From Escherichia coli (GTDB taxonomy: Bacteria > Pseudomonadota > Gammaproteobacteria > Enterobacterales > Enterobacteriaceae), in assembly GCF_002854065.1 (NCBI RefSeq), contig NZ_CP024147.1: a DNA stretch of 64,000 bases. One strand, given 5' to 3'. Every line of letters starts with the position of its first letter. Position 1 is the stretch's first letter. Positions 7,685 to 15,882 of the stretch are shown piece by piece. A model generated the notes under the pieces. That model searched no databases, was not told where the DNA came from, and saw only the letters and a program-made list of their open reading frames with translations. The position numbers and the translations under genes were made by a program.

Positions 7685-8800
7685 ATGAAAAAGCGGAAAA
7701 CCGTGAAGAAGCGTTACGTTATTGCGCTGGTGATAGTCATCGCCGGACTGATTACGTTATGGAGAATTCTTAACGCACCCGTGCCGACTTATCAGACACT
7801 GATTGTGCGCCCCGGTGATTTACAGCAAAGCGTGCTGGCGACCGGAAAGCTGGACGCGCTGCGTAAGGTTGATGTGGGCGCGCAGGTCAGCGGTCAGTTG
7901 AAAACACTGTCGGTGGCGATTGGCGATAAAGTAAAAAAAGACCAGCTTTTAGGGGTCATTGATCCTGAACAGGCTGAAAACCAGATCAAGGAGGTCGAAG
8001 CAACGCTGATGGAGCTACGCGCGCAGCGGCAGCAGGCGGAAGCGGAGCTGAAACTGGCGCGGGTGACGTATTCCCGTCAGCAACGTCTGGCACAAACGCA
8101 GGCGGTTTCACAGCAGGATCTCGACACCGCCGCGACGGAGATGGCTGTGAAACAGGCGCAAATTGGCACCATTGACGCGCAAATCAAGCGCAATCAGGCT
8201 TCTCTCGATACGGCTAAAACCAATCTCGATTACACTCGCATCGTTGCCCCGATGGCCGGGGAAGTCACGCAAATCACCACTCTGCAAGGCCAGACGGTGA
8301 TTGCCGCACAACAAGCACCGAACATTCTGACGCTGGCAGATATGAGCACCATGCTGGTAAAAGCGCAGGTTTCTGAAGCGGATGTAATCCACCTGAAGCC
8401 GGGGCAAAAAGCCTGGTTTACGGTACTTGGCGATCCACTGACGCGCTACGAGGGGCAAATCAAGGATGTACTACCGACGCCGGAAAAGGTTAACGACGCT
8501 ATTTTCTATTACGCCCGTTTTGAAGTCCCCAACCCCAATGGTTTGCTGCGGCTGGATATGACTGCGCAAGTGCATATTCAGCTCACCGATGTGAAAAATG
8601 TGCTGACGATCCCTCTGTCGGCGTTAGGCGATCCGGTTGGCGATAATCGTTATAAAGTCAAATTGTTGCGTAATGGTGAAACACGCGAGCGTGAAGTGAC
8701 GATTGGCGCACGTAACGATACCGATGTTGAGATTGTCAAAGGGCTGGAAGCGGGCGATGAAGTGGTGATTGGTGAGGCCAAACCAGGAGCTGCACAATGA
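7685..8800 (+). CDS. macA: macrolide export membrane-fusion protein MacA
   Basis: Start chosen at [16 protein letters not shown] (371 aa), with a membrane anchor and coiled-coil/HlyD-like sequence; its stop overlaps the macB start. Confidence 0.9.
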
Positions 8801-10743
8801 CACCCTTGCTCGAATTAAAGGATATTCGTCGCAGCTATCCTGCCGGTGATGAGCAGGTTGAGGTGCTGAAGGGCATCACCCTCGATATTTATGCCGGTGA
8901 GATGGTAGCGATTGTTGGCGCTTCGGGTTCCGGTAAATCAACCCTGATGAATATTCTCGGCTGTCTGGATAAGGCCACCAGCGGCACCTATCGCGTCGCC
9001 GGTCAGGATGTTGCCACACTGGACGCCGATGCGCTGGCGCAACTACGCCGCGAGCATTTCGGCTTTATTTTCCAGCGTTACCATTTGCTTTCGCATTTAA
9101 CCGCCGAGCAGAACGTTGAAGTACCCGCCGTCTATGCTGGTCTTGAGCGGAAACAGCGGCTGCTTCGCGCCCAGGAGTTGCTGCAACGACTGGGGCTGGA
9201 AGACCGTACAGAGTATTATCCGGCACAGCTTTCGGGTGGTCAGCAACAGCGCGTTAGCATCGCGCGGGCATTGATGAACGGCGGTCAGGTAATTCTTGCC
9301 GATGAACCAACCGGCGCACTGGACAGCCATTCTGGCGAAGAGGTGATGGCGATCCTGCATCAGCTGCGCGATCGCGGACATACGGTGATTATCGTCACCC
9401 ACGATCCGCAGGTCGCTGCTCAGGCCGAGCGGGTGATCGAAATTCGCGACGGCGAAATTGTGCGCAATCCTCCCGCCATTGAAAAAGTGAATGTTGCTGG
9501 CGGGACGGAACCTGTTGTCAACACGGTGTCTGGCTGGCGGCAGTTTGTCAGCGGTTTTAACGAGGCGCTGACGATGGCATGGCGGGCGCTGGCAGCGAAT
9601 AAAATGCGTACTTTACTGACCATGCTGGGGATTATAATCGGTATTGCGTCGGTGGTTTCCATTGTCGTGGTGGGCGACGCCGCCAAACAAATGGTGTTGG
9701 CGGATATTCGTTCTATTGGTACGAATACTATTGACGTCTACCCCGGGAAAGATTTTGGCGATGGCGATCCGCAATATCAGCAGGCGCTGAAGTACGACGA
9801 CTTAATCGCCATCCAAAAACAACCGTGGGTCGCCTCAGCCACACCTGCCGTCTCGCAAAACCTGCGCCTGCGTTATAACAATATTGATGTTGCTGCCAGT
9901 GCCAATGGCGTGAGCGGCGATTATTTTAATGTCTATGGCATGACCTTCAGTGAAGGAAACACCTTTAATCAGGAACAGCTGAACGGTCGTGCGCAGGTCG
10001 TGGTTCTCGACAGTAATACTCGCCGCCAGCTTTTCCCCCATAAAGCAGATGTGGTTGGCGAGGTGATTCTGGTCGGCAATATGCCCGCCAGAGTCATTGG
10101 TGTGGCGGAAGAAAAACAGTCGATGTTTGGTAGCAGTAAAGTGCTGCGTGTCTGGCTACCTTACAGCACGATGTCCGGGCGAGTTATGGGCCAGTCGTGG
10201 CTGAACTCCATTACTGTCAGGGTGAAAGAAGGATTTGACAGCGCCGAGGCGGAACAGCAACTCACGCGTTTACTTTCACTGCGCCACGGTAAGAAGGATT
10301 TCTTTACCTGGAACATGGACGGCGTCTTGAAAACCGTTGAAAAGACCACACGTACTTTACAACTGTTTCTGACGCTGGTGGCGGTGATTTCGCTGGTAGT
10401 GGGCGGTATTGGTGTAATGAATATTATGCTGGTGTCAGTGACCGAGCGGACGCGGGAAATTGGCATTCGCATGGCTGTAGGTGCGCGAGCAAGCGATGTT
10501 TTGCAACAGTTCCTGATCGAAGCCGTACTGGTTTGCCTGGTTGGTGGCGCGTTGGGAATAACACTGTCACTGTTAATTGCTTTCACCTTGCAGCTTTTCT
10601 TACCCGGCTGGGAGATTGGTTTTTCACCGTTGGCACTGCTGCTGGCGTTTCTCTGCTCGACGGCCACCGGGATTTTATTTGGCTGGTTACCCGCACGAAA
10701 TGCGGCACGACTGGATCCAGTAGATGCTCTGGCACGAGAGTAA
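8797..10743 (+). CDS. macB: macrolide export ABC transporter ATPase/permease MacB
   Basis: 648 aa; N-terminal ABC ATPase ([35 protein letters not shown]) followed by an FtsX-like permease domain. Confidence 0.92.
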
Positions 10744-11683: not shown

Positions 11684-11713
11684 ATGCAGGCATAAAAATT
11701 GGGGGAGGTGCCT

Positions 11714-13990
11714 ATGCTCAATCAAGAACTGGAACTCAGTTTAAATATGGCTTTCGCCAGAGCGCGCGAGCACCGTCATGAGTTTATGACCGTCGAGCAC
11801 TTGTTACTGGCGCTGCTCAGTAACCCATCTGCCCGGGAGGCGCTGGAAGCGTGTTCTGTGGATTTGGTTGCGCTCCGTCAGGAACTGGAAGCCTTTATTG
11901 AACAAACCACACCCGTTCTGCCTGCCAGTGAAGAGGAGCGCGACACACAGCCGACGCTGAGTTTTCAGCGTGTACTGCAACGTGCGGTCTTCCATGTCCA
12001 GTCCTCCGGTCGCAATGAGGTTACCGGTGCAAACGTTCTGGTCGCTATCTTTAGCGAACAGGAGTCGCAGGCGGCATATCTGTTGCGTAAACATGAAGTC
12101 AGCCGTCTCGATGTGGTGAACTTTATCTCTCATGGCACGCGTAAAGACGAGCCGACACAGTCTTCTGATCCTGGCAGCCAGCCAAACAGCGAAGAACAAG
12201 CTGGTGGGGAGGAACGTATGGAGAATTTCACGACGAACCTGAATCAGCTTGCGCGCGTGGGCGGAATCGACCCACTGATTGGTCGTGAGAAGGAGCTTGA
12301 GCGTGCTATTCAGGTTCTCTGCCGTCGCCGTAAAAACAACCCGCTGCTGGTGGGGGAATCTGGTGTTGGTAAAACTGCGATTGCGGAAGGTCTTGCCTGG
12401 CGAATTGTTCAGGGCGATGTGCCGGAAGTGATGGCTGACTGTACAATTTACTCACTCGATATCGGTTCTCTGTTAGCGGGCACAAAATATCGCGGCGACT
12501 TTGAAAAACGTTTTAAAGCGTTGCTCAAGCAGCTGGAGCAGGACACTAACAGCATCCTGTTTATTGATGAGATCCACACCATTATCGGTGCGGGGGCAGC
12601 GTCTGGTGGTCAGGTCGATGCGGCTAACCTAATCAAACCGTTGCTCTCCAGCGGTAAAATTCGTGTAATTGGTTCGACAACCTATCAGGAGTTCAGCAAC
12701 ATTTTCGAGAAAGACCGTGCTCTGGCGCGTCGCTTCCAGAAAATTGATATTACTGAACCGTCGATCGAAGAAACTGTTCAAATCATCAATGGCCTGAAAC
12801 CGAAGTATGAAGCACACCACGACGTGCGTTATACCGCAAAAGCGGTGCGTGCGGCGGTAGAGCTGGCGGTGAAATACATTAACGATCGTCATCTGCCGGA
12901 TAAAGCCATTGATGTTATCGACGAAGCGGGCGCTCGCGCACGCCTGATGCCGGTAAGCAAACGCAAGAAAACCGTTAATGTGGCGGATATTGAGTCCGTG
13001 GTGGCCCGTATTGCACGCATTCCAGAGAAGAGTGTTTCTCAGAGTGATCGTGATACCCTGAAAAACCTCGGCGATCGCCTGAAAATGCTGGTCTTCGGTC
13101 AGGATAAAGCCATTGAGGCGCTGACTGAAGCCATTAAGATGGCGCGTGCAGGTTTAGGTCACGAACATAAACCGGTCGGTTCGTTCCTGTTTGCCGGTCC
13201 TACCGGGGTCGGGAAAACAGAGGTGACGGTACAGCTTTCGAAAGCTTTGGGCATTGAGCTTCTGCGCTTTGATATGTCCGAGTATATGGAACGCCATACC
13301 GTCAGCCGTCTGATTGGTGCGCCTCCGGGATACGTTGGTTTTGATCAGGGCGGTTTGCTGACTGATGCGGTCATCAAGCATCCACATGCGGTGCTGCTGC
13401 TGGACGAAATCGAGAAAGCGCATCCGGACGTGTTCAATATTCTGTTGCAGGTGATGGACAACGGTACGCTGACCGATAACAACGGACGCAAAGCGGACTT
13501 CCGTAACGTGGTGCTGGTGATGACCACTAACGCCGGGGTACGGGAAACTGAGCGCAAATCCATTGGTCTTATCCACCAGGATAACAGCACCGATGCGATG
13601 GAAGAGATCAAGAAGATCTTTACACCGGAATTCCGTAACCGTCTCGACAACATTATCTGGTTCGATCATCTGTCAACTGACGTGATCCATCAGGTGGTGG
13701 ATAAATTCATCGTCGAGTTGCAGGTTCAGCTGGATCAGAAAGGTGTTTCTCTGGAAGTGAGCCAGGAAGCGCGTAACTGGCTGGCCGAGAAAGGTTACGA
13801 CCGGGCAATGGGCGCACGTCCGATGGCGCGTGTCATCCAGGACAACCTGAAAAAACCGCTTGCCAACGAACTGCTGTTTGGTTCGCTGGTGGACGGCGGT
13901 CAGGTCACCGTCGCGCTGGATAAAGAGAAAAATGAGCTGACTTACGGATTCCAGAGTGCACAAAAGCACAAGGCGGAAGCAGCGCATTAA
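11714..13990 (+). CDS. clpA: ATP-dependent Clp protease ATPase subunit ClpA
   Basis: 758 aa from [19 protein letters not shown]; two AAA+ modules (GESGVGKT and GPTGVGKT Walker A motifs). Confidence 0.95.
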
Positions 13991-14013
13991 TCTGATTGTC
14001 AGGTAGGTTGGTG

Positions 14014-14052
14014 AAGTCCGTAATCTCGAAAGAGGTTACGGACTTTTTATTT
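14014..14052 (+). terminator. clpA rho-independent terminator
   Basis: AGTCCGTAATCTC-GAAA-GAGGTTACGGACT hairpin followed by TTTTTATTTAT. Confidence 0.7.
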
Positions 14053-14202
14053 ATGGGGTGGAGGAGGTTCAGACCCTTTTTTTGATGATGATGGTAACTT
14101 GTTGATAATTAGTGCTGCTGGAAGGTAAGGATAAAAAAGGGTGCTGCGGGAGAATGGGATGGTTTTGCTTTATTAACAACGGGCTAAACGTGTAGTATTT
14201 GA

Positions 14203-14290
14203 ATTCACTGCCGTACAGGCAGCTTAGAAAGTCAACCGAAAGAAAAACTCGATTTTTATACCGTTCACTGCTGTACAGGTAGATAAAATG
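14203..14290 (+). CRISPR. orphan type I-F CRISPR remnant (2 repeats, 1 spacer), no adjacent cas genes
   Basis: Repeat 1 ATTCACTGCCGTACAGGCAGCTTAGAAA (14203..14230), 32-bp spacer GTCAACCGAAAGAAAAACTCGATTTTTATACC (14231..14262), degenerate repeat 2 GTTCACTGCTGTACAGGTAGATAAAATG (14263..14290); repeat 1 matches the E. coli I-F repeat consensus as recalled. Confidence 0.8.
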
Positions 14291-14333
14291 CGAAAAAAAA
14301 GCTCGCACTTTCGTACGAGCTCTTCTTTAAATA

Positions 14334-14421
14334 TGGCGGTGAGGGGGGGATTCGAACCCCCGATACGTTGCCGTATACACACTTTCCAGGCGTGCTCCTT
14401 CAGCCACTCGGACACCTCACC
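14334..14421 (-). tRNA. serW: tRNA-Ser (GGA anticodon)
   Basis: Minus-strand sequence GGTGAGGTGTCCGAGTGGCTGAAGGAGCACGCCTGGAAAGTGTGTATACGGCAACGTATCGGGGGTTCGAATCCCCCCCTCACCGCCA: 88 nt, long variable arm, encoded CCA. Confidence 0.92.
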
Positions 14422-14603
14422 AAATTGTTTTGCTGCCAAACCTCATGGGTGGCAACGGGGCGCTACTATAGGGAGTTGGAGTAAAACGGTCAAGAAGAAT
14501 TTTAATGATAATTATTGTTTGCTCATACTGTAAACAACTTGTGCAGTATATCTACATCGAGACAAGTTATGGACTTATACTTCCAAAGTACTTCATACAT
14601 ATC

Positions 14604-14634
14604 ACAAAATAAAAAGGCCGGTTAAACCGACCTT
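14604..14634 (-). terminator. infA rho-independent terminator
   Basis: Minus-strand hairpin AGGTCGGTTTAACCGGCCT followed by TTTTTATTTTGT. Confidence 0.6.
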
Positions 14635-14674
14635 TTACTCGTTCTTTCTCTTCGCCCATCAGGCGGTAAAACAA

Positions 14675-14896
<222 letters not shown>

Positions 14897-15177
14897 ATCC
14901 TCTGGGGTATCACTACCGTAATTTGAACCGGCAAGATAATGCCGAAGTTCTGTAAATAAGTAAAGATTTGCGCGCTAAATCGCAACAAACAGGTTCGGCA
15001 CATTACTCCGAAAACACACGGCTAAGCCGCACCAAAAGCGCAACGTATAAGGGAGCGGTGAGATAAACGATGGGCGTTACCTGACGCGAAAAATTCCTTA
15101 TCGGCAGCGGGGTAATGAGCGTAACCAACTCTGCGACCGCAATTATAACACTCTGGGGAGAAATGTGCCGAAAACAT

Positions 15178-15882
15178 TCATTCTTGTGGTGAAAACAAGC
15201 ATCGTGGTACCCAGAAATTATTCGGCAATCGTCCGAGGCGCATTTGATTGAGATAATTAAGGTAATCCCGGCGGGGAATTTCGCAGGCACCAAGCGATGC
15301 TGTGTGATCGTTAAGGACCTGGCAGTCGATAAGCTTACCGCCATGACCGATAAATTCCTCACAGAATACCAGAAGCGCCGTTTTAGACGCATTTTCCATC
15401 CGGCTGAACATGGACTCGCCACAAAATAGCGTTCCCTGGGCCACGCCGTACATACCGCCGACAAGCTCATCTTCACGCCAGACTTCAATGGAGTGGGCAT
15501 GACCGAGTTCGTGAATGCGATGGTAGGCTTCGACCACGCCACGCGTGATCCAGGTTCCTTCTTCGCGATCGCTGGCACAGCCTTCAATGACCTGACCAAA
15601 AGCGTAATTCATCGTGACACGATAGGGCGAGCGTTTATGAAATCGCTTCATACTACGGCTGATATGCAGTGATTCTGGCCATAGCACCGCGCGAGGATCG
15701 GGCGACCACCAGAGGATGGGGTCGCCTGGAGAAAACCACGGAAAAATACCACGCTGGTAAGCCATTAACAGGCGCGCAGGGCTAAGATCGCCCCCAAGTG
15801 CCAGCAGGCCGTTAGGCTCACGTAATGCGCCTTCCGGGGAAGGGAAGGCTATTGAATGGCGAGAAAGCTGAACCAGGCGCAT
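15178..15882 (-). CDS. aat: leucyl/phenylalanyl-tRNA--protein transferase
   Basis: 234 aa, [50 protein letters not shown]... Confidence 0.92.

Follow-up and report, generated by a model that had tools for sequence, protein, structure and literature searches.

The window, as we call the whole 64,000-nucleotide stretch of Escherichia coli DNA analyzed here, carries a type I-F repeat-spacer-repeat unit at positions 14203-14290, between clpA and the tRNA gene serW. The unit reads ATTCACTGCCGTACAGGCAGCTTAGAAA / GTCAACCGAAAGAAAAACTCGATTTTTATACC / GTTCACTGCTGTACAGGTAGATAAAATG, and an earlier observation of it, made in a first-pass annotation of the DNA, is confirmed. The features of the locus are as follows.

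11714-13990, plus strand: clpA, the upstream landmark, outside the array (open reading frame 11699-13990; start taken from RefSeq for the identical region of strain CUWW06)
13991-14202, plus strand: CRISPR leader, 212 bp, assigned by homology to the clpA-proximal leader of I-F-positive strains
14013-14050, plus strand: predicted intrinsic terminator of clpA (inverted repeat, 15-bp stem plus T-run), which parts clpA transcription from the leader
14082-14109, plus strand: predicted sigma-70 promoter TTGATG-16-GATAAT within the leader, by consensus match only
14203-14230, plus strand: Repeat 1 (R1), ATTCACTGCCGTACAGGCAGCTTAGAAA, with a CRISPR-DR4 match
14231-14262, plus strand: 32-nt anti-cas spacer, GTCAACCGAAAGAAAAACTCGATTTTTATACC, with a csy3 match
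14263-14290, plus strand: Repeat 2 (R2), terminal, GTTCACTGCTGTACAGGTAGATAAAATG, at 60-nt spacing, CRISPR-DR4 18.5 bits
14293-14328, minus strand: intrinsic terminator hairpin of serW, right after the array (terminator-like site; inverted repeat)
14334-14421, minus strand: serW, tRNA-Ser(GGA) (ARAGORN; Rfam tRNA 53.8 bits)
14675-14893, minus strand: infA, downstream of serW

The gap between clpA and serW is 343 bp, and the serW terminator at its far end may also end the array transcript. R1 matched the Rfam family CRISPR-DR4 (RF01317) over its full length with 47 bits and an E value of 2e-9 (gathering score 35), and it is identical at 27 of 28 positions to the repeat of the active UTI89 I-F arrays, GTTCACTGCCGTACAGGCAGCTTAGAAA, the sole difference being A for G at base 1. 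The 5-bp stem and 5-nt loop of a type I-F repeat are present at positions 6-20. R2 scored 18.5 bits against CRISPR-DR4, which is below gathering; it nevertheless keeps 17 of the 19 core bases and starts exactly 60 nt after R1, which is the I-F period. The window has two matches to the core with at most three mismatches, where chance would give 0.02. The last 8 nt of R2 are divergent, as in the terminal repeats of both active UTI89 arrays, and the R2 tail, ATAAAATG, is common to the orphan arrays of K-12, ST2747, and NRZ14408. The unit has the makings of a CRISPR array in the general sense (at least two repeats, a constant spacer, and a leader) at the minimal size of two repeats. The first-pass annotation had described a 28-bp repeat equal to the E. 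coli I-F repeat except for its first base, a 32-nt spacer, a degenerate second repeat, and confinement of the whole to about 340 bp between clpA and serW; each of these points stood on re-examination, and its reservation that the 28-mer might match no repeat family was dispelled by the CRISPR-DR4 match.

No further I-F repeat was found in the 64-kb window, including the serW-infA interval, and no second copy of the spacer was found there. The Rfam scan covered positions 13500-15200. MicC, sraA, the Thr leader, and other Rfam families scored far below gathering, their hits being due to the terminators of serW and infA, which leaves tRNA and CRISPR-DR4 as the only credible families. Three overlapping open reading frames, at 14069-14308 (minus strand), 14224-14439 (minus strand), and 14288-14533 (plus strand), were also set aside; all are absent from the RefSeq annotation and extend across repeats, terminator, and tRNA gene.

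The leader of the window aligns base for base with that of UTI89 as far as the first repeat, and positions 1-705 of the UTI89 locus (L004) are 96.6% identical to window positions 13526-14230. Comparison of the clpA-infA interval across E. coli strains, which the first-pass annotation had recommended, revealed orphan arrays at the same locus. Homologous DNA is present there in 5410 of the 5426 complete E. coli genomes; in 4928 it covers at least 80% of the length. RefSeq leaves the array unannotated in the records of CUWW06, K-12 W3110, TR01, and ST2747.

The surroundings of the array vary between strains. Within positions 13991-14202, the window leader differs from that of K-12 at 7 of 212 positions and from that of ST2747 at 14 of 212; the spacer belongs to the same anti-csy3 lineage as in ST2747, and K-12 has an anti-cas1 spacer. 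This pairing of a K-12-like leader with an ST2747-type spacer suggests either that the locus has recombined internally or that an ancestor with several spacers lost different ones in different lineages. ST2747 (L006 701-837) and NRZ14408 (L007 ~700-980), both of which carry an anti-csy3 orphan array, have at least one repeat unit annotated 'RtT sRNA' between the array and serW, and alongside these units a duplicated serW 3' end with its terminator. Window positions 14291-14333 represent a short form, free of RtT sRNA units and of the serW-end duplication. E. coli 100416 (L002 2019-3236) shares the clpA-array interval with the window at 100% identity; a tyrosine integrase gene lies ~180 bp past the array, and tRNA-Ser is unannotated in that stretch, which suggests that an island was inserted at serW.

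The array stands apart from cas genes. A tblastn search with the six UTI89 I-F Cas proteins found no homologue in the 64-kb window; the best hit (E 0.045, csy3 query) was the spacer itself. None of the set cas1f, cas2-3f, csy1, csy2, csy3, and cas6f is thus present in the window, as the first-pass annotation had supposed for the immediate neighborhood. The best match of the window was strain CUWW06, isolated from wastewater in Thailand, with 100% identity over 20 kb, and we used it as a proxy for the genome when looking for I-F and I-E cas operons beyond the locus, a further check that the annotation had proposed. No csy3 was found in CUWW06, where the spacer query matched one place only. Its iap-cysH interval (L012 18910-21223) holds a hok/gef toxin gene where the I-E cas operon would be. 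CUWW06 is without cas genes at both canonical loci. In the 64-kb window and with CUWW06 as proxy genome, the array is an orphan (cas-less) one, and its location is the clpA-infA interval of an E. coli without cas-F genes.

The spacer matches a gene of the cognate I-F system. Against csy3 (cas7f) of UTI89 and ~200 other E. coli, GTCAACCGAAAGAAAAACTCGATTTTTATACC is identical at 31 of 32 positions, and CC lies immediately 5' of the protospacer. In UTI89 the protospacer is on the csy3 coding strand at L004 9001-9032, spanning the codons R-Q-P-K-E-K-L-D-F-Y-T, and the single mismatch falls on spacer position 23, outside the seed, in a third codon position where the change is synonymous. The csy3 of strain 504838 represents another E. 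coli allele, with three mismatches, at positions 2 (seed), 26, and 29, all synonymous, and with the CC kept. Beyond E. coli, we scanned for the protospacer with degenerate codons, taking one genome for each GTDB species. Both Escherichia whittamii and Escherichia sp. E1V33 have a csy3 that matches the spacer at 32 of 32 positions, again with CC on the 5' side, and tblastn placed both protospacers inside csy2-csy3-cas6f operons. No comparable match of the spacer appeared in any shuffle. When the literature was searched in full text for the spacer sequence, no paper came up. The first-pass suggestion that the spacer could have a protospacer match was borne out by these alignments.

The I-F PAM is CC on the leader-proximal side, written GG on the complementary strand (PMC3506596). 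In the convention of that paper the PAM region here is GGC, a combination that supports interference (PMC3506596). The spacer accordingly has a cas-F gene as its target, with the canonical I-F PAM (csy3, CC). It has the sense of the csy3 mRNA and would therefore pair with the DNA but not the transcript, and on this ground we rejected any antisense or regulatory action on csy3 mRNA. Two observations on the strains that supplied the targets may be added. E1V33, a non-coli Escherichia, has a 38-repeat I-F array (L018, minus strand, 8371-10623) on the same contig as csy2-csy3-cas6f and apparently an active I-F system. In the UTI89 record NZ_CP062985.1, csy2 (L004 7205-8128) is annotated as a pseudogene with an internal stop, and the I-F system of that record may not be intact.

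We asked of the two repeats whether they keep the parts that form a crRNA. The R1 hairpin has a predicted folding energy of -8.6 kcal/mol, equal to that of the consensus, so that the Cas6f hairpin appears intact by fold prediction. The last 8 nt of R1, CUUAGAAA, would be the 5' handle of the crRNA, and the first 20 nt of R2, GUUCACUGCUGUACAGGUAG, its 3' hairpin handle. R1 base 1 lies outside the mature crRNA; its change might make for poorer integration of new spacers. R2 carries two substitutions, C10->T (14272) and C18->T (14280), each of which replaces a G-C pair by G·U. R2 is still predicted to fold into the 5-bp hairpin, at -4.0 rather than -8.6 kcal/mol; we counted this drop against a functional reading, and the weaker predicted hairpin could reduce Cas6f binding. 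A literature search on the tolerance of Cas6f for G·U pairs returned nothing usable. Recognition of the hairpin and of G20 by Cas6f/Csy4 was reportedly described by Haurwitz et al. in 2010 and Sternberg et al. in 2012. G20 and A19, which we take to be the bases read by Csy4 from its structures, are unchanged in R2. The terminal repeat of K-12 has a G->A change that breaks a stem pair, in contrast to R2 of the window, where pairing is kept; with two changes only, the pairing-preserving pattern of R2 is not statistically meaningful. Divergence was 4.5-8% for the array unit, 5.7-6.6% for the leader, and 3.4-5.9% for third codon positions of clpA (4-5 sequences). The unit shows no greater conservation than neutral-like sites, and these 4-5 sequences therefore give no signal of purifying selection.

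Among the 5426 complete E. coli genomes, the 32-mer spacer had matches at 654 places in 652 genomes. The identical spacer occurs in 7 of the 5426, at the same unannotated clpA-serW position, including O157:H7 TR01, 100416, and CUWW06. A variant beginning GCCAACC, with a seed-position change and a leader type different from that of the window, occurs in ~370 genomes; its orphan-array position was checked in ST2747. The remaining matches lie inside annotated csy3 of I-F-positive strains. With csy3 present in 241 of the 5426 genomes, the anti-csy3 spacer lineage comes to ~411 genomes (the 652 matched genomes less the 241 with csy3). Since 652 genomes hold only 654 places, at most two genomes can have both the spacer and its target.

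Related orphan arrays at this locus are directed against the same system. The K-12 spacer matches cas1f with two mismatches and a CC PAM, and there are two spacers in AMSCJX03 and three in 98223, with targets in cas3f and cas1f. Taken together, the sister arrays of K-12, AMSCJX03, 98223, and ST2747 hold one to three spacers, every one of them against cas1f, cas3f, or csy3. The anti-cas1 spacer of AMSCJX03 and 98223 is 28 nt long, having lost 4 nt by deletion compared with the 32-nt spacer of K-12, and their leader-proximal anti-cas3 spacer is 33 nt long.

We consider it probable that the locus is an orphan type I-F array whose sole spacer, directed against csy3 of the cognate system, bars incoming I-F systems. 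The points counted in favor are the repeat family, the UTI89-like leader, the csy3 match with its CC, the sister anti-cas arrays, the near-exclusivity of spacer and csy3, and the crRNA handles; R1 base 1, the csy3 mismatches, the divergence values, and a promoter known by consensus only were counted against. In the proposed mechanism, the leader would drive a short pre-crRNA that is inert as long as I-F Cas proteins are missing. Should an I-F cas operon enter and be expressed, the incoming Cas6f would cut the resident transcript after G20 of both hairpins. The product would be a 60-nt crRNA consisting of CUUAGAAA, the 32-nt spacer, and GUUCACUGCUGUACAGGUAG, which would join the incoming Csy1-3. 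Once bound to the protospacer beside CC in the incoming csy3, this complex would bring in Cas2-3, whereupon the DNA bringing the cas genes would be degraded, or the integrating cell killed, and the I-F system could not establish itself.

According to PMC5972030 and PMC8616872, two reviews by the same group that relate the work of Almendros et al. (2016), native orphan arrays show constitutive expression, interference against plasmids that bear the complete cas-F set, and primed acquisition. For this allele, we infer that it would be transcribed, that Cas6f would process its wobble-paired R2, and that interference would follow. Orphan arrays that are expressed and interfere in the literature are, therefore, not simply decayed. 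The first-pass annotation had seen here the decayed clpA-infA locus of I-F-less strains; the identity of the locus holds, given the homologous DNA in nearly all of the genomes, whereas the word 'decayed' does not suit a locus in which the leader and the crRNA-forming parts are kept.

Three other explanations were weighed. The first-pass annotation read the single spacer as the record of one past encounter with a phage or plasmid, so that its protospacer would lie in a mobile element. Such an origin would not be out of character, as most spacers in the I-F arrays of cas-positive E. coli come from plasmids (PMC5972030, PMC2886076) and the I-F operon itself could arrive on a plasmid or island. 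A search of a phage collection, however, gave chance-level partial matches only (at most 78% spacer coverage, E values of 0.9 or more), and in a plasmid collection the sole full-length match was an E. coli chromosome of 4.9 Mb, wrongly listed among the plasmids, which has the same orphan spacer. Set against the match of 31-32 of 32 positions to csy3 with its PAM, a mobile element is refuted as the primary target by these sequence comparisons, and we give this reading very little credence. Still less, practically nothing, is left for the idea that the unit is not CRISPR at all and that a chance direct repeat or a pair of regulatory hairpins fills the clpA-serW interval. There are indeed two repeats only, R2 falls below the Rfam threshold, and RefSeq has no annotation; yet R1 matches CRISPR-DR4 at E 2e-9 and agrees at 27 of 28 positions with the repeats that active arrays carry at this locus downstream of the same leader, the 60-nt I-F period is kept, and the spacer matches a cas gene. 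On these alignments the non-CRISPR reading is refuted.

The remaining explanation concerns how the array came about. The cas genes may have been lost because spacers against them were acquired (PMC8616872), a proposal of Díez-Villaseñor et al. (2010) cited in PMC8616872 and PMC2886076. The array could then be an inert scar of autoimmunity: an ancestor whose I-F system still worked took the spacer from its own csy3, self-targeting favored deletion of the cas operon, and the remnant has drifted neutrally. The degenerate R2 and the mutated base 1 of R1 fit such drift, as do the spacer variants with one to three substitutions elsewhere, the 4-nt deletion in the anti-cas1 spacer, the broken stem of the K-12 terminal repeat, the resemblance in divergence of the unit to the leader and to clpA third codon positions (4-5 sequences), and a CUWW06 genome devoid of cas genes at either canonical locus. 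Neutral drift sits poorly, however, with a locus kept in 5410 of 5426 genomes (4928 at 80% of the length or more), the more so as recombination readily removes a unit of two repeats, an argument of Touchon and Rocha (PMC2886076). The leader and crRNA-forming parts are intact, both R2 changes keep pairing, and native orphan arrays have shown interference in experiments, as reported in PMC5972030 and PMC8616872. We regard the inert scar as unlikely. The scar and anti-cas readings are compatible, the former describing the origin and the latter the present role.

Within the anti-cas reading that we prefer, a further step can be imagined, to which we assign only a small chance: the window may carry the original, unmutated anti-csy3 spacer, and orphan arrays may still be selected and exchanged between lineages by recombination, tracking the cas-F alleles of the genus. 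This suggestion was based on the 32/32 match to non-coli csy3, the K-12-type leader, the altered seed position and different leader of the widespread GCCAACC variant, and the pairing-preserving changes of R2. If true, orphan arrays would be a barrier to CRISPR-Cas transfer between Escherichia species.

The feature is already known, being a published anti-cas orphan array, and current understanding is unchanged by the finding; what is added here is the description at the level of the allele and the exact-match csy3 alleles in other Escherichia species. For annotation, the spacer is best read as anti-csy3 and not as the record of a phage infection. The array illustrates the published, counter-intuitive idea that a CRISPR array can outlive its own cas genes and turn against them. 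Such an array keeps the cell free of that CRISPR-Cas type and so open to plasmids.

The orphan array on the clpA side is the CRISPR4.1-2 or orphan CRISPR4 of the Mojica group and the CRISPR3 of Touchon and Rocha (2010, PMC2886076); the names CRISPR4.1, CRISPR4.2, and CRISPR4.1-2 follow Almendros et al. (2014, PMC3903273). Touchon and Rocha (2010) described CRISPR3 in cas-less genomes with anti-Ypest-cas spacers only and proposed an 'anti-CRISPR' role (PMC2886076). The array of the window resembles the orphan CRISPR4 of Almendros, Guzmán, García-Martínez and Mojica (2016, Nat Microbiol 1:16081) and of Díez-Villaseñor et al. (2010) in its clpA-serW-infA locus, leader, and 28-nt repeat. The likeness extends to the tail ATAAAATG, the number of spacers (one to three), the lack of cas-F genes, and cas-F targets with CC. 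It differs from the orphan CRISPR4 described in 2010 (PMC2886076) in that its target is csy3 rather than the cas1, cas3, and csy2 listed there, and from other orphan CRISPR4 arrays in a spacer version found in 7 of 5426 genomes, an R1 that starts with A, and the two G·U-forming changes of R2. A csy3-matching spacer of an orphan array was reported by Slukin et al. (2025) in a survey of uropathogenic E. coli (PMC12736100). Their standalone region RR1 is also an orphan clpA-infA array with a csy3 target.

Compared with the active I-F locus of UTI89, LF82, and ED1a, which is arranged as CRISPR4.1 - cas1f-cas3f-csy1-csy2-csy3-cas6f - serW - CRISPR4.2, the window agrees in leader, repeat, 60-nt period, and clpA-adjacent position. 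It lacks the six cas genes and the serW-infA array and has one spacer as against eight in the clpA-proximal array of UTI89. With self-targeting systems, in which autoimmunity leads to cas loss or to loss of the target (e.g. Vercoe et al., 2013, PMC3630108), it shares a chromosomal target of the same species and the rarity of spacer and target occurring together (at most 2 of 652 genomes). It differs from them in that the target is absent from the carrier, and the array would act only on incoming DNA.
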